DNA of 9,842 bases from an archaeon (lineage in GTDB: Archaea; Iainarchaeota; Iainarchaeia; Iainarchaeales; CSSED10-239): positions 1-9,842 of the forward strand of contig JBAYPN010000026.1 of assembly GCA_041677685.1 (NCBI GenBank). Reading direction: 5' to 3'. Below are positions 45 through 9,842 of this stretch, piece by piece (the stretch's first letter is position 1; the number at the start of each line of letters is the position of its first letter). A program made the position numbers and the translations under genes. The notes under the pieces were generated by a model. It ran no database searches. It saw only the letters and a list, made by a program, of their open reading frames with translations, and was not told the DNA's origin.

Positions 45-127
45 GCAGAGGTGACGGAGTGGTCAAACGTGCTAGCCTGCTAAGCTAGAGTCTTTGGACT
101 ACACGGGTTCGAATCCCGTCCTCTGCG
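45..127 (+). tRNA. tRNA-Ser(GCU), class II with long variable arm, CCA not encoded
   Basis: Hand-folded cloverleaf. Acceptor GCAGAGG/CCTCTGC has 7/7 pairs. D-stem ACG/CGT. Anticodon stem CTAGC/GCTAG with loop CTGCTAA (anticodon GCT). Variable arm AGTC-TTTG-GACT. T-arm ACGGG-TTCGAAT-CCCGT. Discriminator is G. Confidence 0.9.
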
Positions 128-180
128 TAACCGGTTTCGCTCGGTTAATGCGCAATGGTTGTAAGCAGTTGACACCCAAT
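81..180. repeat. Left copy of a perfect 100-bp direct repeat (candidate attL): 3' 47 nt of tRNA-Ser plus 53 nt of downstream tail
   Basis: 81-180 is base-for-base identical to 4368-4467 (offset 4287). Weaker similarity extends 5 more bp leftward (CCTGC vs CTTGT, two C-to-T differences). Identity stops at ...acccaat, followed by ggtaag on the left and agattc on the right. Confidence 0.9.
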
Positions 181-825
181 GGTAAGCAGTTTGCTGTAAG
201 TAGCTTTAAACAGTGGCTTTATAACAAAAAGTTTGTAAAAGACTATGAAGTTGGATTAATTAACAAATTATCCTTATTATTTGTAAAAGAGCAAAAACAT
301 ACGTATACTTTTTCTGAGCTATCTGATATAATTAAAATAAAATTAGAACAGATAAATGAAGACAAATATCTTAATAGATTAGTAAGACAGATCTTAAATT
401 ATTTGTTAGAAAGTGATATTGTATCTGATAATGATGTGTCTTATATTAAAAAGAAATTAAAAACTAAGCAATATAATGCTGATAACTATGTACCTACAGA
501 CTATGAAATACAGCAAACCCTTTTACAATTAACTCTAAAAAATCTTAAGGAAATGGGTTTAAATGAAAAAGAACTTTCTCAATTTAAGGAATATTGGATT
601 CCTGAACTTAATGGTTCTAAATATTATGTTATAAAATTATTATCTGATGATTTTTTATCTGAAAATATGAATCTTTTAGTATCTCCAACTCCAGATACAA
701 TGATAAGGTTAAATTTTTATTTTAAGGGTGTAGATAATATTGTTAAGTTAGAAGAGCCTGTTATTACAACCCCTGTAAGAAATGGTTTTACTGTTGTTGA
801 ATGGGGTGGAATCTTAGAAGAGTGA
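148..825 (+). CDS. Hypothetical protein in the integrase position of the island; possible degenerate SSV-type tyrosine recombinase (core-binding domain plus mutated box I, no C-terminal catalytic half)
   Basis: This is track ORF 94-825. I prefer the first in-frame ATG at 148, because the TTG at 94 lies inside the tRNA. The frame is open from 76, through the tRNA T-arm (TGSNPV = acg ggt tcg aat ccc gtc). NADNYVPTDYEIQQTLLQL followed by EMGLNEKELSQFKEY resembles the xDxY[IV]PTxxEIxxTLxL ... G[VL]RxxE[IL] region of archaeal integrases, but with Asn where the catalytic Arg is expected. I saw no HxxR or catalytic Tyr region. Confidence 0.55.
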   Translation: MRNGCKQLTPNGKQFAVSSFKQWLYNKKFVKDYEVGLINKLSLLFVKEQKHTYTFSELSDIIKIKLEQINEDKYLNRLVRQILNYLLESDIVSDNDVSYIKKKLKTKQYNADNYVPTDYEIQQTLLQLTLKNLKEMGLNEKELSQFKEYWIPELNGSKYYVIKLLSDDFLSENMNLLVSPTPDTMIRLNFYFKGVDNIVKLEEPVITTPVRNGFTVVEWGGILEE

Positions 826-1133
826 TATCTTTTTTTTCTTTTTTCCTCTTCTTTCTTTTTTCTCTTCTTCTTTTTTATTTTTTTGGTCTAATTTTAATTA
901 ATCTTTTTTTCATTAACTCTTTCTCTCAAAACAATTATTTTTGTTATATTGTAAAGCATAATTTTTAAAAAGGCTTTGTTACTTTAAATATAATAGTTGT
1001 TATGTTTTTCTAAAATATTTAGATAAAAAAGAAAAAATCAAAAAGCAAAAAAAACCAAAAAGTAAAAAATAAAATAAAAAAAACTAAAAAAAATAAAATA
1101 AAAGAAATAAAAAAAATAAAAGGTTTTTAATAT

Positions 1134-1727
1134 ATGAAAAAAGATATTACAGTTACTAAAACAAAGAAAGAAACATTAACAATTACAAAAGCAAAGAAAA
1201 AAGATGTTCTTGCAATATACAATTTACAAAAAAACCAGATCCTGGATTTTAATTCTAAGATAAATCATAAGGAAGTTACAGATAACGGTTTTCTAGTTTA
1301 TGAACTATCAATTGATGATTTTTTAAAAGCTGTAAGTTGTAGAAATACTTTTCTTTTTGTTGCAAAAAATAAAGAAGATGTGGTTGGTTATTTTCTTGCA
1401 TACAGTTTAAAAAAATATATTAAACTTAATCCTTCTTTTATAGAAGAAATTGATGTTTCAGGGGATATTTTAAAAGAAAACAAAGTTCTTTTTGGAAAAC
1501 AGTTAGTCTCAAATAGATCTTTTCCAAAGATTGGTGAGTCTTTAAACAAAGAGATGTTCAAGCACACTAAGTCTTTAGGTTTTACTCTCTACATTTGTGA
1601 GATTTTAGAAAAACCAATTAGAAATAAAAGATCTATTGAAAAACATCTCTCTCTTAATCTAAAAAAAATAGGAACCCACAAAGATGATGAAGATCTTCTT
1701 TGGGGTATTTATTCAAAGAAGCTTTAA
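1134..1727 (+). CDS. GNAT-family N-acetyltransferase-like protein
   Basis: 197-aa ORF with an ATG start. GNAT-like layout: ITKAKKKDVLAIYNL (N-terminal strand/helix), NGFLVYELSIDDFLKAV, VVGYFLAY (beta-4-like), and a C-terminal NKRSIEKHLSLNLKKIG resembling the N..S...H.k.GF motif. The Q/RxxGxG/A motif is not canonical. Confidence 0.55.
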   Translation: MKKDITVTKTKKETLTITKAKKKDVLAIYNLQKNQILDFNSKINHKEVTDNGFLVYELSIDDFLKAVSCRNTFLFVAKNKEDVVGYFLAYSLKKYIKLNPSFIEEIDVSGDILKENKVLFGKQLVSNRSFPKIGESLNKEMFKHTKSLGFTLYICEILEKPIRNKRSIEKHLSLNLKKIGTHKDDEDLLWGIYSKKL

Positions 1728-1945
1728 TTTAGTTTAAATCTTCTTTTTATTTCTTTACCATCTGAGATTTGGTTTATCAGTTGGCTGTTTCCCATAAGAT
1801 AAGTGTTTGCACTCTCAAGGGAGTTTATAACATTTGTTTTCTTACCAATCTCTATTTCAACAGAAAGATATTTGATCAAGTCTCTTAGGCCTGCAAGATT
1901 AATAGCTCCTGCCTCATATTTACTGTAAAGAGATTTTAATATCAT
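1724..1945 (-). CDS. Hypothetical small protein; possibly the 3' remnant of a longer decayed gene
   Basis: 73-aa ORF convergent with, and 4 bp overlapping, the GNAT gene. The same frame stays open upstream to 2089 without any ATG/GTG/TTG. It continues past an in-frame TAA (2090-2092) for about 35 more codons. No motif recognised. Confidence 0.3.
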   Translation of the reverse strand: MILKSLYSKYEAGAINLAGLRDLIKYLSVEIEIGKKTNVINSLESANTYLMGNSQLINQISDGKEIKRRFKLN

Positions 1946-2027
1946 TTCTCTTGCTTGTTTAGTTTCTGCAACAGTTCCAAATGTTTTTAGTTGATTTTTA
2001 ATAATCTCGTTAAACTTTATAGATTGG

Positions 2028-2249
2028 ATGTTTGCAATTTCTTTGTTTATATGTCTTGCTTTATTTTTATTTTCAAAATATTTAGCCTCTTATGACAAAG
2101 AAATATATCTTAAATCTTTCAATTGGTTTTTAATAACCTTAGGGGGTTCTATCTTAATGCTCTTCTTGTTTGGAATGACTGGTGTTTTTGAGGTTTACTT
2201 TTTTGTTTTTCTCTCAATCTTTTTATTAATACTTAATAGACATAAATAA
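2028..2249 (+). CDS. Hypothetical small membrane protein (two or three hydrophobic segments); may be spurious
   Basis: 73-aa, very hydrophobic, T-rich ORF. Its 5' end overlaps the open minus-strand frame 1724-2089, so only one of the two is likely to be real. Confidence 0.25.
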   Translation: MFAISLFICLALFLFSKYLASYDKEIYLKSFNWFLITLGGSILMLFLFGMTGVFEVYFFVFLSIFLLILNRHK

Positions 2250-2315
2250 TTTATAGATAAAGAAAGTTATTACTTCTTTTTAAAAGCTTATCTGATATAA
2301 ATATATATATACATT

Positions 2316-2398
2316 GCAGGGTTTCCCGAGCGGTCAAACGCGCTAGCCTGCTAAGCTAGAGTCTCACGACTACCTGGGTTCAAATCCCAGTCTCTGCG
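2316..2398 (+). tRNA. tRNA-Ser(GCU)-like gene with chimeric Leu/Ser architecture; possibly a tRNA pseudogene
   Basis: Anticodon arm CTAGC-CTGCTAA-GCTAG is identical to tRNA-Ser 45-127. Variable arm AGTC-TCAC-GACT and T-arm CTGGG-TTCAAAT-CCCAG are sound, and the discriminator is G. However, nt 1-23 are identical to nt 1-23 of tRNA-Leu (9140-9162). This leaves the D-stem as CCC vs CGC (1 of 3 pairs) and the acceptor stem with G5-T and a T7-T mismatch. Confidence 0.6.
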
Positions 2399-2553
2399 CT
2401 TTAACTTTTCGCCAGGTTGACAGGTATTTGTTTTAACCTGTAAATTGATTTAACTATTTTTTTGAAAAAAATATATTTGTAAAGTATTTTGTGTTTTGTA
2501 TATAAAAATAAAAAAATACCTTATATCTTTAAAAATATTATGATGTAAAATTT

Positions 2554-3550
2554 GGACTTGTAGAAATCCTATTCAGAAATAAACATCCACAAACAAAATA
2601 CTTTTTGTTTGTATTTTCCAAGTATTGTTATATTGTATGCTAATACTTTCAAGATAACCTGCTTTTGCTGGTTATCTTGCTTTCTTGAAGTTACAAAATC
2701 TCCAAACCTTCTTTTTACTTCCGATATTACCGATTCAACTATCGATCTTTTCCGATACACATTTTTTCTAAATCTTTTTTTTGCTTTAATTTTTTTTTTT
2801 TGTTATCCGTTCTAGTTTTTCCAAAGCATCTAAAGTCAATATGATTTTTAATATTATTATCCCAACAAAACTCTCTAAGTTCTATTGAGTCACATCCTCT
2901 ATCCGCTAAAACACAACTAAGCTTTTGTTTTATTGGTTTTATGGGTGGAATAAAAAAATGCGAATCATGTTTTCTATGATTATATGTTTCAATATTTAAA
3001 ATAAGCTTTGTATATAAATCTTTTAATATATGTGTGTTAATATAGTTTTTATATCCTTTATTAACACCATATTTATTTTGATAGTACATTGATGGGTGTG
3101 TGTTGTCAAATCCTGTTCCATCAATTGCAGATTTAATATTTGTTAAATTTAATATTTTATAACACACCCTTACTAGCTTTGCCAGTAAGTCTTTATCAAA
3201 TCTTGAAATAAACTTTTGTAAGGTTGTAAAGTGTGGTATTTTAACAAACTTAACATCTGTCTGATGTTAAGGTTATCTGCAAGCTCTATAAGTCCTCTGT
3301 AGGATTGTTTATATTTTTCTTTTAAAACAAGTAAAAACACATGTACAAAGTTATTGTATATCCCATTTAAGTATTTAGAAAATCTAAAAGGTAGTCTACT
3401 TTCACTAAATACTCTCTCAACCATCTTATAGAAACCAATAAAAAATATTTGTTTTAATATTATATTGTTCATATTTATCAAATAATATATAGATGCAAAT
3501 CTATGTATTATTTATGGACACTTTAAGAAAAAGAAGGGTTTTACAAGCCC
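2554..3550 (-). mobile_element. Decayed insertion sequence, IS4/IS5 superfamily (IS903-like features: about 1 kb, GG-initiated inverted repeats, about 9-bp target duplication)
   Basis: Terminal inverted repeats are GGACTTGTAGAA (2554-2565) and the reverse complement of 3539-3550, GGGCTTGTAAAA (10/12 match). Flanking direct repeats are GTAAAATTT (2545-2553) and GTAAAAATTT (3551-3560). The element encloses the fragmented DDE transposase. Confidence 0.7.
2569..3481 (-). pseudogene. DDE transposase (IS4/IS5-type, DDE_Tnp_1-like) split by two frameshifts
   Basis: Three consecutive minus-strand ORFs in different frames. 3173-3481 carries the N-terminal SYRGLIELADNLNIRQ segment; the KIPHFTTLQKFISRF motif is readable only after a frame change near 3240-3260. 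2739-3167 carries AIDGTGF (D1) and VLADRGCDS (D2). 2569-2760 carries YRKRSIVESVISEVKRRFG (E). The second shift can be repaired by slippage in the A12 run (T12 on the plus strand, 2790-2801). Confidence 0.8.
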
Positions 3551-3589
3551 GTAAAAATTTAATGTTAAATTAGGTTTTGGTGGATAGAA

Positions 3590-4327
3590 ATGAATAATGC
3601 TATTAAAGAACAATATGATATTAAAGCAAATAAGTATAATTCTTTAAGAGAGGTTCTTCATGTAAAGTATGTTAAAAGACCTTCGATTGAAGCTTATTTT
3701 TCCTTTAATTTAAAAGGTAAAAGAGTATTAGATTTAGCTTGTGGTGAAGGTGAGATGAGTAGATATTTGTATAAGAAAGGAGCAATTGTGACTGGGTTAG
3801 ATAACTCTAAGGAACTAATATCTATTGCTAAAGATAAAAATATAAAATTTGACACAGATATAAATTATCTGCATGGAGATGGCTTTAAACTACAAAATAT
3901 TAATCAAAAATTTGATTTTATTGTAGGGATTTATTTTCTAAATTATGTTTCTTCTAAAAGAAAATTAAATGATTTTTTAAAATTATCAAAAAACTTTCTA
4001 AAATCTGATTCAAAAATGATTTTTTTAATTCCTGATTATGATTTCAGAAAATATTATAATAATTATGGTATAGAATCTTTTACACCTAAAAACGAAGGAG
4101 ATAAACTTAAGTTTAAAATATTTCATGATGATGGGCAACTTGGAATCGAATTAGAATGTTTTTATTGGAAAATGAAAACTTATGAAACTGCATTTAAAGA
4201 TGCAGGCTTTAAATTTAGAGAACATGCTTTAATAATTTCACAAGAAGGTCTAAAAAAATATAGTACTAAATTTTGGACTGAATTGAAAGCAAATCCGATC
4301 TTCAAAATCTATGAACTTAGTTTGTAG
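3590..4327 (+). CDS. Class I SAM-dependent methyltransferase
   Basis: 245-aa ORF. Motif I is VLDLACGEGEMS (from 3725), followed by an acidic residue after beta-2 (TGLDNS) and post-I/II-like HGDGFKL ... FDFIVGIYFLNYV. A GGTGGA Shine-Dalgarno-like element (3579-3584) lies 5 nt upstream of the ATG. Confidence 0.85.
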   Translation: MNNAIKEQYDIKANKYNSLREVLHVKYVKRPSIEAYFSFNLKGKRVLDLACGEGEMSRYLYKKGAIVTGLDNSKELISIAKDKNIKFDTDINYLHGDGFKLQNINQKFDFIVGIYFLNYVSSKRKLNDFLKLSKNFLKSDSKMIFLIPDYDFRKYYNNYGIESFTPKNEGDKLKFKIFHDDGQLGIELECFYWKMKTYETAFKDAGFKFREHALIISQEGLKKYSTKFWTELKANPIFKIYELSL

Positions 4328-4367
4328 ATTTTATTTCTCTAAAATCACTTAATTTATCTACCCTTGT

Positions 4368-4414
4368 TAAGCTAGAGTCTTTGGACTACACGGGTTCGAA
4401 TCCCGTCCTCTGCG
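4368..4414 (+). other. Orphan 3' fragment of tRNA-Ser(GCU) (anticodon-loop 3' side through discriminator), not a functional tRNA
   Basis: Matches tRNA positions 37-83 of the gene at 45-127. No acceptor 5' strand or D-arm lies upstream. Confidence 0.9.
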
Positions 4415-4467
4415 TAACCGGTTTCGCTCGGTTAATGCGCAATGGTTGTAAGCAGTTGACACCCAAT
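4368..4467. repeat. Right copy of the perfect 100-bp direct repeat (candidate attR)
   Basis: Identical to 81-180. It is preceded by unrelated sequence (the methyltransferase 3' flank) rather than a tRNA 5' half. Confidence 0.9.
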
Positions 4468-4544
4468 AGATTCTCTGAGTTAACAGATGATTTTATTTAA
4501 GATTTTAAAATATATTGGTAATTGATTGAAAATTTTGATTTGTT

Positions 4545-5066
4545 ATGGATTATTTAAAATTAAATGATGTTGAGAAAAAGAATTTTTTAAAAAAATTTGT
4601 TTTTAAAGATATTGTTGGCAAGAAAATATCAGATATAATTATTCCTGATAGACATTATTGCTCAAGATATGTTGTAGCTTGTGCAAAAACAATCTATAAT
4701 TGGAAAAAAGAGTATACAGAGATTTCAGGAAATGCATGGAATTTAAGATATAATCCAAATTATAAAGTTGTTTATTCTTTTAAAGGTGGAAAAAAATTAG
4801 ATCTTGAAACATTAAGACCTGGAATGTTTTTATTAGTGTATAATAAATTAAGCTTGTATAATGGAATTAAAGATAAAGAAAATAACCTTATAGACTATAC
4901 ACATGTTATTCTTTATGTTGGAAAAATAGATTCTAAGTTATATTTTATGCACATGTATGATAGTTATTCTGAATTAATAGACTTTGAGGGACTATTTTCA
5001 AAGACTGGAAAATATTTTGAAAATGAGTTTGAAATAAAAGAAGTTTTAAGCTATGTTGGAGAGTAG
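4545..5066 (+). CDS. NlpC/P60-like papain-fold cysteine peptidase/amidase (putative)
   Basis: 173-aa ORF. The motif order is typical of NlpC/P60: HYCSRYV (Cys nucleophile context), LRPGMFLLVYN (the xPGDhhhf equivalent), and YTHVILYVGK ... YFMHMY (His residues). Confidence 0.5.
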   Translation: MDYLKLNDVEKKNFLKKFVFKDIVGKKISDIIIPDRHYCSRYVVACAKTIYNWKKEYTEISGNAWNLRYNPNYKVVYSFKGGKKLDLETLRPGMFLLVYNKLSLYNGIKDKENNLIDYTHVILYVGKIDSKLYFMHMYDSYSELIDFEGLFSKTGKYFENEFEIKEVLSYVGE

Positions 5067-5209
5067 AATACTTTTCAGAATTGACAAAAATTATTTTTTA
5101 AAATTTAATTTAATCATTATATGTAATTTATAATTTAGAAAGAAAGCAGGTTACTTACAAACATAAGAAAAAATACCTACCTAGTTTCCAAATTATTTAA
5201 TTTAACTAA

Positions 5210-5824
5210 TCAACAAGAACCTTCATGAACAATTGGGATGTCTCCAGCTACACATGGATTTGAGTAAGTAACTCCATTTTCTCCACATACAGGGTTAAAC
5301 TCTCTTGTACATGCTTTATCTTGATAGATATACTTTCCAGCTTCACATTCTCCTCTGTAAAACATCCATTCTTCACACTCTGAATTGTCTTGAAAAACAC
5401 AAACTCCATATTCTCCATTTTGTGAGCTTCTGATATCTACAGTTCCGTTATTATCTTCACAAAATTCTGATGCTGGGTTTGCAAGTTGTGTAGTTTCACA
5501 TTCTCCTTGGTATTCAATTTCTACATCCCCTGCCATACATGCATTTCCGTATGTTACTCCATCAACTCCACATACTGGCATGTACTCTAAGGTGCAGATC
5601 TTATTTTCTTCTAAGTTTTCACATTCTCCTTGGTATTCAATTTCTACATCCCCTGCCATACATGCATTTCCGTATGTTACTCCATCAACTCCACATACTG
5701 GCATGTACTCTAAGGTGCAGGCTTTATAATCATTAGTATTTCCAGGTTTTTGAACAACAAGTAAAATTGCAAGAGCAATTCCAATTAGAAAAACAATTCC
5801 AATTAAATAATATATTTTTTTCAT
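5210..5824 (-). CDS. Membrane-anchored or secreted protein with three Kazal-like inhibitor domains and a central DUF333 (COG3042-like) domain
   Basis: I prefer the ATG at 5824 (MKKIYYLIGIVFLIGIALAILLVV signal/anchor) because AAAGGAGAT lies 7-8 nt upstream; the track start at 5866 has no such element. Two identical CTLEYMPVCGVDGVTYGNACMAGDVEIEYQGEC modules and one CTREFNPVCGENGVTYSNPCVAGDIPIVHEGSC module fit the Kazal-like pattern C..PVCG.DG.TY.N.C......G.C. NPASEFCEDNNGTVDI...GVCVFQDNSECEEWMFYRGEC fits DUF333. Confidence 0.85.
   Translation of the reverse strand: MKKIYYLIGIVFLIGIALAILLVVQKPGNTNDYKACTLEYMPVCGVDGVTYGNACMAGDVEIEYQGECENLEENKICTLEYMPVCGVDGVTYGNACMAGDVEIEYQGECETTQLANPASEFCEDNNGTVDIRSSQNGEYGVCVFQDNSECEEWMFYRGECEAGKYIYQDKACTREFNPVCGENGVTYSNPCVAGDIPIVHEGSC
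5494..5720. repeat. Perfect 104-bp intragenic duplication (5494-5597 and 5617-5720), period 123 bp = 41 codons
   Basis: The two copies are identical base for base and separated by 19 bp. Each encodes one Kazal-like module. Confidence 0.95.
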
Positions 5825-5981
5825 AAGTTTAATCTCCTTTTTAGTTATTATAAATAGTCTAAGCAAAAGCTATTATAAATAGATATTTTAGATTAGGTTT
5901 TTCCCTTATTATATATTTTGCTAAAGTGTTATTTTGTAATACCTATTAATACTTATAAATATTTTGTAATATATATAATAA

Positions 5982-6157
5982 ATGACAGAGAAGTCTTTAG
6001 CAATAGTTGATACATCTTTTTGGATCATTTAGTTAAAGTTGAGCTATTAGATGAATTTTTAGATGTTTTAGAAATTAATAAAGTTGCTTTAAATTTAGAT
6101 ACTGTGCCTTTTGAGTATGGATTGTCTTCTATTAAGAAATCCTTAAAAAAGAAATAG
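5982..6157 (+). pseudogene. Possible PIN-domain (VapC-like) gene remnant, frameshifted and truncated
   Basis: ATG at 5982 gives MTEKSLAIVDTSFWII then a stop at 6030. IVDTSFWI resembles the N-terminal hhDTSh motif of PIN domains. The frame starting at 6029 continues LVKVELLDEFLDVLEINKVALNLDTVPFEYGLSSIKKSLKKK to a stop at 6155-6157. About 59 aa in total, too short for an intact PIN domain. Confidence 0.25.
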
Positions 6158-6210
6158 TTTTTCTTTAGAAAAGACGATAGTCTATATGTTTTAAATTTTA
6201 AGTAATCAGA

Positions 6211-6594
6211 TTAAAGTAAATATTTTGATCTTGTAAATTCTAAAAGATCTTCAGGGTTTAGATTATATTTTAGGTCTTCAATCTTAATTTGTATGTCTTT
6301 AACAATTTTGTTCTTCTCTTTTAATATCTCAGATTTAGTGTAACCTTTTTCAAAAACAATTTCACTTATTTTTAAATTTAAATTGTTGTTTGTTTTGTAA
6401 AAGATATATGCAATAGTCTTTTTAATTTTAGTCACATCTCTATTTTCAATTTCTAAAAATATTTGTAGATTCTTAACTTTTTTAAGAGTTAAGTATTCTT
6501 CTTTTAATTTAATATTTTTTAAAAAATTAACATACTCTTTTTCATCAATCTCAAGTTTTGAAAAACCTTTTATTTTAAAATTGTCTTTAATCAT
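6211..6594 (-). CDS. Hypothetical protein (127 aa, Lys/Glu/Ile-rich)
   Basis: Clean ORF with an ATG start. Its composition matches neighbouring genes. No motif recognised. Confidence 0.5.
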   Translation of the reverse strand: MIKDNFKIKGFSKLEIDEKEYVNFLKNIKLKEEYLTLKKVKNLQIFLEIENRDVTKIKKTIAYIFYKTNNNLNLKISEIVFEKGYTKSEILKEKNKIVKDIQIKIEDLKYNLNPEDLLEFTRSKYLL

Positions 6595-6787
6595 AATTAT
6601 CTTTTACCCTATAAGTTATATTTATATAATAGCAAAAAGATTTATAAATTATGCTCTAAAAATATTTAGTTATATAAACTTTATTTTTTAAAAAATAAAA
6701 AATAAAAAAACTTATTTTAAATACTTTTTGTTATATTATATTATCTAAATAAAAAACTATAAATAATAAAAAATAAATTTGAGAAAT

Positions 6788-8743
6788 ATGAAAGTACCTA
6801 AATTTAAATATGTTATAGACAACTTTACAGATTTTAGAATAATTAGATATAAAGTTCCTGATTTTAAAAAATTGTCTCTAAAAGAAAAAAAATTAATTTA
6901 TTATCTTTACCAAGCTGGACTGTATGGAAGAGATATCTACTATGATCAAAATTATAAACATAACTTAATAATTAGAAAAACCTTAGAGGAAATTGTAAAA
7001 GAACCAAAAACAAAGAAAAGTTCAAGAGATTATAATCAATTGCTTGATTATCTTAAACAGATGTGGGCATCTAATGGAATACATAATCATTATTCTTTTA
7101 AAAAAATAGTTCCAAAGTTTTCAAAAGCCTACTTAATTAAAGAAATTAAAAACTTAGAAGAAAATAAATTGCCTTTAGAAAAAAAACAATTGTTAAAGAT
7201 AATAATTCCAATTGTCTTTAATAAGAAAATAGATTCTACAAAAACATGTTTTGATCCAAAAAAAGATTTGATCAAAAATTCAGCAGTTAACTTTTATGAT
7301 AACTTAACTCAAAAAGAAGTTGATAACTATTATTCTAAGCTAATAAACAAAAAAGATAAAGAACCTGTTATGTATGGGCTTAATTCAATGCTGGTAAAGA
7401 AAAATGGAAAAATTGTTGAAAAGGTGTGGAAAGTAAATGGACTTTATTCTAAAGCAATTGAAAGAATAATAGATTACTTAGAAAAAGCAATCTTAGTTTC
7501 TGATTCTAAACAGAAAAAGATTGTTATTAAAAATTTAATTGATTTTTATAAAACTGGAGATTTAAAAACTTTTGATAAATATTCTTTATCTTGGTTAAAA
7601 GATAATAAATCAAATGTTGATTTTTTAAATGGGTTTATAGAAAATTATAATGACCCATTAAACAAAAAAGGAAGCTATGAGGCAATGGTTTCAATTAAAG
7701 ATTTTGATGAAACAAAAAGAACAAAAATAATTAGTAATAATGCTTTATGGTTTGAACAAAATTCCCCAACAGATAAAGAATTTAAAAGAACAGAAATTAA
7801 AGGAATGGATGCTAAGGTAATTAATGTTGTTGTTGAAGTTGGAGATGCTTCCCCTACAACCCCAATTGGAATTAATCTACCTAACTCTAATTGGATTAGG
7901 CAAAAGTACGGTTCTAAGTCAGTAAGTTTAGGAAACATTATTAAGGCTTATGAGATGGCATCTAAGGAAAGTAATTTGAAAAAAGAATTTTTTAATTCTA
8001 AAAAAGAAATTGATCTTTTAGACAAATATTCTTTACTTGCAAACAATCTACATGTGGATCTACATGAGATTGTGGGACATGGTTCTGGTAAATCTGAAGA
8101 AGGAATGTCAGACTTTACTTCTAGCTTAAGAAATTATGATGCTGTTATTGAAGAGGCAAGAGCTGATCTTGTGGCTTTATATTTTGCAATTGATAAAAAA
8201 TTAATTGATCTTAAGTTAATGTCAAGCTTAGATGTTGGAAAAGCTCTATATATCTCTTATATTACAGGTGGGTTGTTAGTTCAGCTTTCGAAAATAAAAA
8301 AAAATCATAATCTTGAAGAAGCACATATGAGAAATAGACAACTAATATGTAAGTGGGTTTATGAAAAAGGCAAATCTCAGAAAATAATTGAAAAGAAAAT
8401 AAAAAATAAAAAAACATATTTTGTAATTAATGATTATGATAGGCTTAGAGAATTATTTGGAAAGTTATTAAAAGAAATTCAAAGAATTAAATCAACTGGA
8501 GATTATAATGAAGCAAAAGAGCTTGTTGAAAAGTATGGCGTGAAGGTGGATAAGAAATTACATGCTGAAGTTATTAAAAGATGGGAGAAATTAAAGATTC
8601 CTAAATATTCTGGATTTATTAATCCAAAATTAATTCCAATTTATTCAAAGAACAAAAAAGAAATTATAGATGTTAAGATTAGTTATCCTGAGAATTTTGA
8701 AAAGCAAATGTTAGAATATTCTTATGTTTATTCTGTTCTTTAA
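6788..8743 (+). CDS. Dipeptidyl-peptidase III family zinc metallopeptidase (MEROPS M49), bacterial short-spacer type
   Basis: HEIVGH (8063-8080) matches the M49 HEXXGH motif, and EEARAD (8150-8167) matches the second M49 zinc motif EEXR(A/K)(E/D). HEIVGHGSGK ... IEEARADL has the short spacing seen in Bacteroides-type DPP III. I prefer the ATG at 6788 to the TTG at 6779. Confidence 0.85.
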   Translation: MKVPKFKYVIDNFTDFRIIRYKVPDFKKLSLKEKKLIYYLYQAGLYGRDIYYDQNYKHNLIIRKTLEEIVKEPKTKKSSRDYNQLLDYLKQMWASNGIHNHYSFKKIVPKFSKAYLIKEIKNLEENKLPLEKKQLLKIIIPIVFNKKIDSTKTCFDPKKDLIKNSAVNFYDNLTQKEVDNYYSKLINKKDKEPVMYGLNSMLVKKNGKIVEKVWKVNGLYSKAIERIIDYLEKAILVSDSKQKKIVIKNLIDFYKTGDLKTFDKYSLSWLKDNKSNVDFLNGFIENYNDPLNKKGSYEAMVSIKDFDETKRTKIISNNALWFEQNSPTDKEFKRTEIKGMDAKVINVVVEVGDASPTTPIGINLPNSNWIRQKYGSKSVSLGNIIKAYEMASKESNLKKEFFNSKKEIDLLDKYSLLANNLHVDLHEIVGHGSGKSEEGMSDFTSSLRNYDAVIEEARADLVALYFAIDKKLIDLKLMSSLDVGKALYISYITGGLLVQLSKIKKNHNLEEAHMRNRQLICKWVYEKGKSQKIIEKKIKNKKTYFVINDYDRLRELFGKLLKEIQRIKSTGDYNEAKELVEKYGVKVDKKLHAEVIKRWEKLKIPKYSGFINPKLIPIYSKNKKEIIDVKISYPENFEKQMLEYSYVYSVL

Positions 8744-8769
8744 TTTTTAGACAAATAATATTTTTTTTA

Positions 8770-8812
8770 GTTTTCTAAAATTAGAAAACAATATGTTTTT
8801 AAATAAAAACAT
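8770..8812 (+). terminator. Two adjacent perfect 8-bp AT-rich hairpins, each with an AAAT loop (possible terminator or regulatory element)
   Basis: GTTTTCTA-AAAT-TAGAAAAC (8770-8789) and ATGTTTTT-AAAT-AAAAACAT (8793-8812), preceded by a T-run at 8761-8768. They lie between the DPP III stop and the next small ORF. Confidence 0.25.
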
Positions 8813-8842
8813 AGTAATTATATTTATAGTGATAGATTAAAT

Positions 8843-9007
8843 ATGTTAAAAAAAGATATAAAGGTAGTGTTAGGGAGAACAATAATTTTAATTGGAATTA
8901 TTTTCTTAATATTTGGTTTAACTGAACTTTATGAATTTCATATAGGTTTATTATTTGCAATAATTTTATGGGTAATTTCAATATTAATATTTAGAAATTA
9001 TATATGA
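8843..9007 (+). CDS. Hypothetical small membrane protein (54 aa, two hydrophobic segments)
   Basis: Not in the track (too short). ATG at 8843 gives MLKKDIKVVLGRTIILIGIIFLIFGLTELYEFHIGLLFAIILWVISILIFRNYI, with a stop at 9005-9007. Confidence 0.3.
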   Translation: MLKKDIKVVLGRTIILIGIIFLIFGLTELYEFHIGLLFAIILWVISILIFRNYI

Positions 9008-9013
9008 TTTGAT

Positions 9014-9103
9014 ATGTCTAAAGAAAAATATACTTTTTGGGTTGTGCTTTCAATAATTGTTATAGTTGTTCTTTTAGTTTTAGGTTTAATAATGTATTAT
9101 TAA
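9014..9103 (+). CDS. Hypothetical micro membrane protein (29 aa, one hydrophobic segment)
   Basis: ATG at 9014 gives MSKEKYTFWVVLSIIVIVVLLVLGLIMYY, with a stop at 9101-9103. It starts 6 nt after the previous small ORF. Confidence 0.2.
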   Translation: MSKEKYTFWVVLSIIVIVVLLVLGLIMYY

Positions 9104-9139
9104 GTTGTTGTATAATTTTTAGGAAAGAGTTACTTTTAA

Positions 9140-9221
9140 GCAGGGTTTCCCGAGCGGTCAAAGGGGATGGACTCAAAATCCATTGCTTAGTGCTTCACAG
9201 GTTCGAATCCTGTACCCTGCA
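9140..9221 (+). tRNA. tRNA-Leu(CAA), class II, CCA not encoded
   Basis: Acceptor GCAGGGT/ACCCTGC has 7/7 pairs. D-stem CCC/GGG. Anticodon stem ATGGA/TCCAT with loop CTCAAAA (anticodon CAA). 13-nt variable region. T-arm ACAGG-TTCGAAT-CCTGT. Discriminator is A. Confidence 0.85.
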
Positions 9222-9236
9222 CTTTTTAAAAACAGA

Positions 9237-9518
9237 TTACAATTCTTTTTCAATTTTTATAGCTTTTCCATTTATTAAAGAATCAGCAATTTTTGTTCTT
9301 GCTTCTAGTAGTATTCTGTGGAAAGTAGATTGAGAAATTTCCATTCTTTTTGCACATTCTATTTGTTCTAACCTTTCATGATCTTTAAGTCTAATTGCTT
9401 CAAGTTCAGAAAAATCCAATTTAATTTGTTCTAATCTATTGATTGGTATTCCTGCTGGTTTAAAGTAGGTCACTTTTGGTATATTTAAAATTCTTCTAAA
9501 TCTTTTTGGTCTTGGCAT
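9237..9518 (-). CDS. DUF134 (UPF0251) family predicted DNA-binding protein
   Basis: MPRPKRFRRI...FKPAGIP...LDFSELEAIRLKDHERLEQIECAKRMEISQSTFHRILLEARTKIADSLINGKAI matches the conserved DUF134 pattern: MPRP..R, FKP.G, E.EA.RL.D, and a sigma-70 region-4-like helix-turn-helix. Confidence 0.85.
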   Translation of the reverse strand: MPRPKRFRRILNIPKVTYFKPAGIPINRLEQIKLDFSELEAIRLKDHERLEQIECAKRMEISQSTFHRILLEARTKIADSLINGKAIKIEKEL

Positions 9519-9524
9519 ATTTTC

Positions 9525-9842
9525 TCAACTTTCTTTTTTACATGATTCTTTTATATCTTTTAAATTATTTAAATTATTAATAACTTCATTTAATATTTTA
9601 TAGTTTCCATTTTTAATTAATATTTGCTTTTCATTGAAAAAAGAAATTGCTTTTTGTCCCATTCCTAAACTAAAAATAATATCTGGCTTATATTTTATTA
9701 TTTCTTCAGAGATGTTTGAGTTTTTTAGACTATGGTCATTTTTGTTTTTTATAATTTCTAATCTTTTAGTTTCACTTTGGTAAATTGCAAAAAAATTACA
9801 CATTCCAAAATGTTTACTTAATTTTGAGTTAAGTGCATTGTC
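9525..9842 (-). CDS. NifB/NifX/NifY-like (dinitrogenase iron-molybdenum cofactor domain family) protein, 5' end outside the window
   Basis: The frame stays open to the window edge: DNALNSKLSKHFGMCNFFAIYQ. The HFG....F.IY motif and a later GMG..A segment are typical of this small domain family. The stop lies 6 nt upstream of the DUF134 start, suggesting an operon. Confidence 0.6.
   Translation of the reverse strand, partial: DNALNSKLSKHFGMCNFFAIYQSETKRLEIIKNKNDHSLKNSNISEEIIKYKPDIIFSLGMGQKAISFFNEKQILIKNGNYKILNEVINNLNNLKDIKESCKKES

Follow-up and report, generated by a model that had tools for sequence, protein, structure and literature searches.

The 9,842-nt stretch of archaeal DNA analysed here (contig JBAYPN010000026.1; hereafter the window) carries, at positions 181-4467, a 4,287-bp island that is anchored in a tRNA-Ser(GCU) gene and bounded by a perfect 100-bp direct repeat. 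We conclude that this island is very probably the decayed mosaic remnant of an integrative element of the Candidatus Iainarchaeum lineage (DPANN), inserted by an integrase of the SSV type. Four near-identical strains lack the island precisely between the two copies of the repeat, and the gene next to the tRNA begins with the N-terminal part of such an integrase, whose intact relatives occupy the same tRNA site elsewhere. Both attachment (att) sites are intact and a functional integrase is absent, the state of an integrase-less, att-flanked island. It is best described as a captured remnant of an SSV-type element, lacking the features for which an intact integrase is needed.

The tRNA-Ser(GCU) repeat and its empty sites

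ARAGORN and Rfam called three tRNAs in the window (at 44/45-127/128, 2316-2399 and 9140-9222), with Rfam scores of 63.6 and 55.7 bits for the two normal ones, the tRNA-Ser(GCU) and a tRNA-Leu(CAA), and of 32.2 bits for the tRNA at 2316-2399. Direct string comparison of 81-180 with 4368-4467 showed identity at 100 of 100 positions; a repeat finder returned 78-180 against 4365-4467 at 99% identity, positions 78-79 being matched as well. The exact repeat begins at the third anticodon base (position 81), from which point on the tRNA-Ser gene lies inside the left copy, crosses the tRNA 3′ end at 127 and continues for a further 53 bases, while the 5′ half of the tRNA is absent upstream of the right copy. 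A preliminary description of this DNA, made from its letters alone, had reported the intact tRNA-Ser(GCU) at 45-127, the perfect 100-bp repeat, its edge in the anticodon loop and the missing tRNA 5′ half, and each of these observations was confirmed. By our estimate, the expectation for a perfect 100-mer repeat arising by chance in 9.8 kb at 25% G+C is about 1e-43. The right copy is immediately preceded by CTACCCTTGT (4358-4367), a degenerate version of the CTAGCC-TGC anticodon-stem/loop sequence (72-80); in all probability the identity therefore originally extended to the anticodon stem, where it starts in related elements too.

To find strains without the island, we looked up the exact protein encoded by the gene to its right (4545-5066) and obtained four contigs, two from metagenome-assembled genomes at NCBI (L011, GCA_028708135.1; L013, GCA_028702685.1) and two from Logan runs (L016 and L017). 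All four carry the TrmB-like gene upstream of the tRNA, the same tRNA-Ser gene and, 275 bp after the TrmB-like gene, the gene for the 173-aa protein. In L013, L016 and L017, which are 100% identical to the window over 1-180, position 180 is followed at once by the sequence from 4468 on, and the identity of L013 to the window over 4365-9842 is 99.98%; L011 has the same joint, and its differences lie mainly in the tRNA variable loop, where 3 bases are changed. Overall, the flanks of the four empty-site assemblies are 99.7-100% identical to those of the window, and the island is present in contigs L001, L002-L010, L014 and L083-L090. The preliminary description had taken the repeats for an attL/attR signature of insertion and had proposed a search for the empty site, and the precise joint found in near-identical strains supports this interpretation.

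We note that the tRNA-Ser allele of L011 (9787-9871, compared with 45-127 of the window) differs only in the variable loop, with TCAC for TTTG, at a place inside the repeat. The TCAC variant is common to L011, to a hybrid tRNA within the island (described below) and to the relative L080, and this sharing suggests allele exchange within the att region. Directly after the tRNA-Ser lies a trailer hairpin, TAACCG-N8-CGGTTA (128-147), whose counterpart in L018 (~6881-6905) reads CAACTG-N8-CAGTTG, with two compensatory changes. It may serve as a tRNA trailer or as a terminator; alternatively, its 6-bp arms and 8-bp spacer would suit a core-type site of a recombinase.

The arrangement might be an artefact, a repeat-induced misjoin during assembly, and several short contigs do end at or near the repeat or at an A/T-rich spacer within the island. 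However, both copies and the whole island recur, at 99.98% identity, in an independently assembled 35-kb MEGAHIT k141 contig (L001/L012/L083), the repeat being shorter than k, and the left junction is found in at least seven further assemblies, as is the right junction. These multiple independent assemblies rule the artefact out, and we give it virtually no credence.

An integrase remnant and its self-splitting relatives

The open reading frame (ORF) next to the tRNA (94/148-825) gave no match in Pfam, PHROGs or NCBIfam, and its integrase origin surfaced only through a homologue search. Residues 1 to ~130 are 92%, 85%, 83% and 68% identical to proteins P0002, P0003, P0004 and P0007 (269-289 aa), of which P0002, P0003 and P0007 carry PF16795 ("archaeal phage integrase") at 96-100 bits in a Pfam scan and P0004 carries it in its precomputed annotation. 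Furthermore, residues 110-273 of P0002 align with the SSV1 integrase structures 3UXU, 3VCF and 4DKS (E 2e-9), with the motifs SGVRK, YCRKW and NHY aligned to the SSV1 motifs. At the DNA level homology extends over 41-543, with 97.2% identity to L025 and 95.2% to L082, and ends at 543 in every relative; across intact relatives the retained integrase part is 85-97% identical. Judged by these alignments, the ORF in the integrase position really does derive from an integrase.

An uninterrupted integrase frame runs from 76 across the entire repeat and as far as 825, and integrase homology within it ends at residue ~130 (nt 543). The retained piece thus stops ~20 residues into the catalytic domain, so that the ORF of the window lacks the PF16795 catalytic domain (R...K...xxR...Y) and all of the catalytic residues are gone. 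The remainder, up to the stop at 825, is an in-frame fusion to the end of an unrelated gene, that of P0005, which belongs to a widespread family of DPANN and candidate phyla radiation (CPR) proteins ("KPAVYLYP...GFTVVEWGG"); hundreds of homologues match only this foreign part. The homologies to the integrase and to P0005 overlap in the microhomology AAAAAT (538-543), and the junction is therefore an illegitimate one. We considered a simple deletion between the integrase and a neighbouring P0005-like gene as the source of the fusion and rejected it, the gene downstream of the intact integrase in L082 being unrelated. Thus the preliminary description was right to see a degenerate ORF in the integrase position, in that a true N-terminal integrase fragment is present, but the ORF is more than degenerate: it is a chimera with an unrelated gene and is without the whole catalytic domain and the Int(N) part discussed next.

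Searches for the integrase family found ~70 protein clusters, the few with names being almost all from Candidatus Iainarchaeum, and the named hosts of related contigs are likewise mostly from this DPANN lineage, with two labelled only "uncultured archaeon". Among the 46 related loci whose integrase 5′ end is listed and not cut at the very start of a contig, 40 have a tRNA gene on the same strand no more than 150 nt upstream, and three of the other six have too little upstream sequence. The targets are tRNA-Ser(GCU), Ser(GGA), Thr(GGU), Met(CAU), Asp(GUC) and Arg(CCU), and the very tRNA-Ser site of the window is occupied by elements with intact integrases in L021, L022, L025, L030 and L082. Where both ends of an element lie on one contig, they are perfect direct repeats that start at tRNA position 26-30, in the anticodon stem/loop. 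These repeats measure 89 nt in L024 and L038 (8,983-bp elements in tRNA-Met), 58 nt in L039, 46 nt in L054, 49 nt in L072 and 48 nt in L097 (a 9,125-bp element in tRNA-Thr on the same contig as the empty site of L011).

Joining the ends of such elements in silico yields one open frame composed of a conserved N-terminal module of 50-60 aa, Int(N), a linker encoded by the tRNA 3′ half, and Int(C). This split-gene anatomy was seen in L024, L038, L054, L072, L078 and L068, and in the last two the Int(N) module reads through the 3′ half of tRNA-Asp. A tblastn search placed Int(N) modules at the right ends of 8 loci, the integrase frame is open across the att site in 13 of 16 related loci checked, and L060 holds an uninterrupted Int(N)-att-Int(C) frame. 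By our own reading and one weak CcdA match (E 0.005), the Int(N) module resembles a ribbon-helix-helix domain. Suicidal, or type I, integrases are defined by an att site inside the integrase gene, which is split on integration, and once split they need an intact integrase in trans for excision (PMC8371274, PMC7253208). Since in the relatives the att site lies inside the integrase gene and the gene is split, the family belongs to this type. Self-splitting integrases have been placed in Sulfolobales, Thermococcales, Archaeoglobales, a few Methanosarcinales and one Thaumarchaeota (PMC8371274, PMC7253208, PMC6563490), and the present clade appears to be undescribed in DPANN in the literature that we compared, which leaves out the study of DPANN mobile elements by Wu et al. 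2024 (Nat Microbiol). In the window the Int(C) fragment stands at the left end and Int(N) is absent at the right, no module being found there by tblastn with the Int(N) modules or in the reconstructed circular junction.

Several features of the relatives are recorded here in their own right. L060 is a 2.7-kb contig that starts inside Int(C) and ends with Int(N), the tRNA-Thr 3′ half and the start of Int(C) in one frame (2494-2682); such a contig may represent either a free circle of very small size or a tandem junction that is in frame. The element in L097 (9962-19159, GCA_028708135.1), with its perfect 48-nt repeat at a tRNA-Thr(GGU), is a second element of the same integrase family in the host genome; it encodes methyltransferases, a SpoU methylase and HicA, and an internal 250-nt repeat of 90% identity (14086-14335, 18881-19130) indicates two tandem elements. 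In L054 a second complete tRNA-Ser(GGA) lies 750 nt beyond attR. Intact relatives also encode Avd-like proteins (23S_rRNA_IVP/bAvd; L018 14081-14434, L022 5651-5995, L024 5478-5828), which might be pointers to a diversity-generating retroelement or to defence cargo, and L024 additionally encodes a DUF5906 primase/helicase-like protein, a VRR-NUC/HIRAN nuclease and a Schlafen AlbA_2 protein.

From this family-wide anatomy we infer how the island would have been inserted. An element whose att site was a copy of the tRNA 3′ part inside its integrase gene would have recombined site-specifically with the tRNA-Ser(GCU) gene through the action of a tyrosine integrase of the SSV type ("suicidal", type I, PF16795). 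A crossover at the anticodon stem/loop would have restored a complete tRNA on the left, followed directly by Int(C), and would have pushed the original tRNA 3′ part to the right-hand end, after Int(N).

The preliminary description had remarked that a 100-bp core is long for an att site, and this is indeed so, the repeats of other family members being 46-89 bp. Those of 46-58 nt end at the tRNA 3′ end, and the long cases, of 89 nt in L024/L038 and 100 nt in the window, reach into the 5′ part of the integrase gene. In the window, the 53 additional bases can be aligned with integrase gene starts in L018, L021, L025 and L082 and hold two candidate integrase starts (ATG at 148, TTG at 169). These 53 bases are also present at the empty sites and are missing from the unoccupied tRNA-Ser of the relative L080. 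The 53 nt are most likely the scar of an earlier, deleted element at a hot spot, already present in attB, with which an incoming sibling would have shared sequence. Tandem accretion in L056 and L097, with internal att or Int(N) remnants, shows that such layering occurs in the family. A search of 4468-5215 for a remnant of an older attR gave local alignment scores below those of shuffled controls.

That the repeat runs 53 bp past the tRNA, a length that selection to rebuild the tRNA does not explain, is also one of two points in favour of an origin in which no integrase ever took part, the other being the chromosome-like DNA from a tRNA-Leu locus inside the island. The repeat would then stem from a segmental duplication, or from homologous (Campbell-type) capture of a circular DNA sharing 100 bp with the tRNA region. 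We regard this as very improbable: the edge of the repeat is at the anticodon, just as in every family member, the integrase fragment is in its canonical position and frame, and the same tRNA site holds the intact-integrase elements named above.

Cargo and flanking genes

The features of the island and its borders are collected in Table 1.

Table 1 Features of the island, its borders and the flanks (window coordinates)
Feature	Position	Strand	Remarks
tRNA-Ser(GCU), intact, integration target	45-127 (ARAGORN/Rfam 44/45-127/128)	+	Rfam RF00005, 63.6 bits; anticodon GCT at 79-81
Left direct-repeat copy, attL side	81-180	+	3′ 47 nt of tRNA and 53-nt trailer; identical to 4368-4467
5′ fragment of SSV-type integrase Int(C) gene	148-543	+	~130 codons: SAM-like N-terminal region and first ~20 residues of catalytic domain
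3′ fragment of unrelated gene	538-883	+	last ~93 codons and 58 nt; 98.3% DNA identity to L081 (full-length P0005 gene)
Low-complexity A/T-rich spacer	884-1115		14.7% G+C; several assemblies break here
ORF197	1134-1727	+	possible GNAT-like fold, model-based
C-terminal fragment of 309-aa gene	1724-1945	-	blastn 79.7% over 907 nt, tblastn 80%
Hybrid pseudo-tRNA	2272-2399	+	tRNA-Leu(CAA) upstream region and first 23 nt, then 3′ 61 nt of a foreign tRNA-Ser(GCU)
IS5-family insertion sequence	2554-3550	-	DDE_Tnp_1 matches; NF033579 (IS5 family)
Class I S-adenosylmethionine-dependent methyltransferase	3590-4327	+	generic UbiG/UbiE/TehB-like; Pfam Methyltransf_25/23/11
Element-side arm beside attR	4328-4367	+	integrase frame open only from 4321; 15 codons, no start codon
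Right direct-repeat copy, attR side	4368-4467	+	3′ 47 nt of tRNA-Ser and 53-nt trailer
Host flank with 173-aa gene (4545-5066)	4468-5066	+	directly follows position 180 at empty sites
tRNA-Leu(CAA)	9140-9222		ARAGORN, Rfam

Downstream of the chimeric ORF lies an A/T tract (830-1130), poly-T-rich and then poly-A-rich, of which the L086 version is ~250 nt longer. ORF197, which follows, had no match in Pfam, NCBIfam or PHROGs and only four homologue clusters in the homologue search. Its AlphaFold2 model is of low confidence (pLDDT 46.6), and all of the top-50 Foldseek matches in the PDB are GNAT acetyltransferases, at weak scores (E 3e-4 to 8e-3, TM ~0.4). The model thus gives no more than a hint that ORF197 may be GNAT-like; the GNAT assignment of the preliminary description finds weak support at the level of the fold and none in Pfam or NCBIfam. 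In the relative L080 and in contig L004 the ORF197 gene lies directly 3′ of a tRNA-Leu(CAA), and a chromosomal segment that directly follows this tRNA in L080 (8019-8922) shares 79.7% identity with the block 1182-2074 of the window.

The element's apparent extra tRNA, as the preliminary description had it, is in fact a hybrid of a tRNA-Leu 5′ part and a tRNA-Ser 3′ part. Positions 2272-2338 are 85% identical to L080 7830-7895 (tRNA-Leu and upstream region), 2328-2409 are 90% identical to the tRNA-Ser of L080, and the joint lies inside a shared GGTCAAA; an element-type trailer (2400 to ~2425, ..GGTTGACA) follows. The acceptor stem, as read from the sequence, contains a G5-U68 wobble and a U7-U66 mismatch, and these fit the low Rfam score of the hybrid (2316-2399), which at 32.2 bits is just above the gathering score of 29. 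On the strength of the hybrid structure, the acceptor mismatch and this score we rejected the idea of a functional cargo tRNA-Ser.

A second unusual junction was observed in L004 (ERZ27247376 k141_1854453), which begins, at 1-110, with a complete tRNA-Leu(CAA), then TTGTTAT (7 nt) and then ORF197 (compare 1116 and 9140-9221 of the window). L004 is elsewhere 99.98% identical to the window, and a normal tRNA-Leu is also present ~8 kb downstream in it. The junction matches the arrangement of L080 and is absent from the window; a search for the context "54-aa gene, tRNA-Leu, ORF197", which might explain the start of L004, found no contig. Together, the L004 junction and the Leu/Ser hybrid point to possible recombination between tRNA-Leu and tRNA-Ser regions.

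The preliminary description also listed a frameshifted insertion sequence (IS), which we could assign to the IS5 family: its transposase is spread over three frames (3481-3173, 3167-2739 and 2760-2569) separated by two frameshifts. Imperfect terminal inverted repeats lie at 2554-2569 and 3536-3550, with the flanks GTAAAATTT and GTAAAAATTT. The homologue in L054 is a single frame of 293 aa that passes the NCBIfam IS5 cut-off, and homology to L054 covers exactly 2559-3550. An intact IS5-family copy, 65% identical to that of the window, lies directly downstream of the integrase in L053 (1150-2138) and L054 (982-1970), both of the tRNA-Ser(GGA) type. The last gene of the island, listed earlier as an orphan methyltransferase, does encode a methyltransferase dependent on S-adenosylmethionine, whose NCBIfam matches (UbiG/UbiE/TehB-like) are all below the cut-offs. 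For 3590-4327 no DNA-methyltransferase family was found in Pfam or NCBIfam at the cut-offs used; two PHROGs labelled "DNA methyltransferase" (phrog_799 and phrog_3820) match marginally (E 0.041 and 0.045), well behind generic and tRNA-methyltransferase matches, so that a DNA-methyltransferase assignment is, these two aside, unsupported.

In the right flank, a gene for a secreted Kazal/DUF333 protein (5210-5866, minus strand) contains tandem repeats of 111-123 nt at 5209-5319, 5494-5604 and 5617-5727. The length of the protein varies among near-identical strains (163, 174, 204 and 218 aa), with L011 carrying a gene split into 128 + 83 aa; this is a copy-number polymorphism of Kazal domains. Further downstream, DUF134 and Nitro_FeMo-Co are called as one 210-aa fusion in L004 (8085-8717, compared with 9237-9803 of the window) and as separate proteins of 93 and 114 aa in other strains, and in L080 the whole DUF5320/Nitro_FeMo-Co/DUF134 block is inverted.

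History, mobility and known systems

After insertion, Int(C) lost its catalytic domain through the illegitimate junction with the foreign gene fragment, and Int(N) disappeared as well. Without these two parts the island is unable to move by itself. An IS5 copy was inserted and later gained its two frameshifts, and the island holds a block from a tRNA-Leu locus that ends in the tRNA-Leu/tRNA-Ser hybrid.

Several observations weigh against reading the island as the remnant of an integrative element. Its composition, which the preliminary description had proposed to compare with the flanks, is indistinguishable from that of the host (25.6% against 25.7% G+C; tetranucleotide distance 0.18 against a host mean of 0.179 and a maximum of 0.259). 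The ORF197 block and the region upstream of the tRNA-Leu look like chromosomal DNA of relatives, so that the island is not a clean mobile-element genome. The junction in L004, where tRNA-Leu leads directly into ORF197, is left unexplained by the proposed history. The tRNA-Ser subfamily is without a contig that holds both ends of an element, the evidence for Int(N) coming from the tRNA-Met, Thr, Asp and Ser(GGA) members. The 53 extra bases of the repeat could instead be a host trailer captured by the element. Finally, no free circular form or attP of this element was found, and a scan of IMG/VR for relatives of the integrase returned nothing, nor is there evidence that the element is a virus.

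On the reading that we nonetheless favour, that of a decayed SSV-type element, presence and absence of the island would arise by recombination across the two perfect repeats, carried out either by the homologous recombination system of the host or by an intact sibling integrase acting in trans, and the data fit a recent gain as well as a recent loss. Another lineage (L084) has a 96.3% identical variant of the inner island that contains the same IS insertion. The island is therefore older than the split between the empty and occupied strains, which are 99.98% identical, and the polymorphism accordingly stems from recent recombination: either loss, or transfer of the already decayed island.

Loss is the essence of the view that the island is a fixed fossil, in which homologous recombination of the host has recently and precisely deleted it between the 100-bp repeats to give the empty sites, and no integrase has a part in the present polymorphism; to this we give about even chances. 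A perfect identity of 100 bp is ample for RadA-type recombination, and the interior, old and decayed, contrasts with flanks that are 99.98-100% identical between empty and occupied strains. The variable-loop allele of L011 (TCAC for TTTG), lying inside the repeat, likewise fits an exchange anywhere in the repeat and not at a fixed crossover. The direction of the change is, however, not polarised, and the L011 allele could equally be ancestral, L080 also having TCAC.

Alternatively, the island may still be mobile as an integrase-less, cis-mobilisable unit that is moved in trans by sibling integrases sharing the identical 100-nt att, the occupied strains having gained the decayed form recently. 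Both att copies are perfect and the interior is broken, and the age of the island implied by the L084 variant agrees with such a transfer. Moreover, L025 and L082, from related populations, have the identical att sequence and intact Int(C) genes, 95-97% identical over the retained part, and are candidate helpers; suicidal integrases in any case rely on an integrase supplied in trans for excision (PMC8371274). Against this, neither a circular junction nor a second insertion site was seen, the same genome yielded no intact integrase of the tRNA-Ser type (another family member on the host contig targets tRNA-Thr and is only 44% identical), and loss by homologous recombination between the 100-bp repeats explains the polymorphism equally well. 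We therefore consider continued mobility rather unlikely.

In itself the island is a fairly ordinary kind of genomic island, a textbook tRNA-anchored one verified down to its empty site, and it shows that tRNA integration hot spots give rise to strain-level variation in the gene content of an uncultured DPANN archaeon. The co-directional integrases, the class II tRNA targets and the short ribbon-helix-helix-like module would extend the range of suicidal integrases to low-G+C DPANN genomes. A bolder proposal, which we hold to be improbable, is that DPANN of the Iainarchaeum lineage possess a self-splitting integrase clade of their own that leaves behind att-flanked, integrase-dead islands mobilisable in trans, the 100-bp identity and the Leu/Ser hybrid being footprints of integrase-catalysed, homology-type recombination among tRNA genes and element scars. 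A parallel exists in Int-pTN3, which can, according to the literature, recombine identical segments of at least 104 bp. If true, integrases would actively rearrange these very small genomes.

Among known systems, the closest likeness is to SSV1 and SSV2 of Sulfolobus and to pTN3, pT26-2 and the TKV elements of Thermococcales, all with PF16795 integrases, whose catalytic domain the relatives of the window integrase share and align with the SSV1 structure. In the relatives, as in these systems, the integrase ORF contains attP, and on insertion into a tRNA 3′ part the gene is cut so that Int(N) and Int(C) come to lie at opposite ends. Integrated copies likewise decay and become "captured", and att begins at or near the anticodon. 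In pT26-2 the att, of 51 bp, begins 2 nt upstream of the anticodon (PMC7253208). Unlike the hyperthermophilic hosts of those elements, the present host is a mesophile-type DPANN archaeon (Iainarchaeia) of 25% G+C. The integrase is co-directional with the tRNA and not antiparallel as in pT26-2, and the targets of the family include tRNAs of class II, with their long extra arm (Ser), which are for the most part avoided by the pT26-2 family. In addition, Int(N) looks, on our reading and its one weak CcdA match, like a short ribbon-helix-helix module, and the window itself has neither catalytic domain nor Int(N) and a 100-bp repeat that includes 53 bp of integrase 5′ sequence.

Bacterial tRNA islands with P4-like integrases, as commonly described, are similar in their tRNA anchor, in a repeat that runs from the anticodon loop to past the 3′ end, in the remnant of a mobility gene beside the tRNA, in presence and absence among strains, and in the accretion of ISs and accessory genes, but the self-splitting integrase family is specific to archaea and the island of the window shows no compositional deviation. 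For the bacterial islands an anticodon-loop sublocation was reportedly described by Williams in 2002. Cis-mobilisable elements (CIMEs) at the sites of streptococcal integrative and conjugative elements, again as commonly described, also combine two intact att sites and no working integrase with co-occurring related elements of the same att specificity; the domain of life and the recombinase family differ, and mobilisation in trans is here only a candidate. Lastly, tandem accretion at archaeal tRNA genes (PMC8371274) has its likeness in L056, in L097 with its 250-nt internal repeat and in the 53-nt scar, although in the window only that 53-nt remnant of a presumed older element survives.

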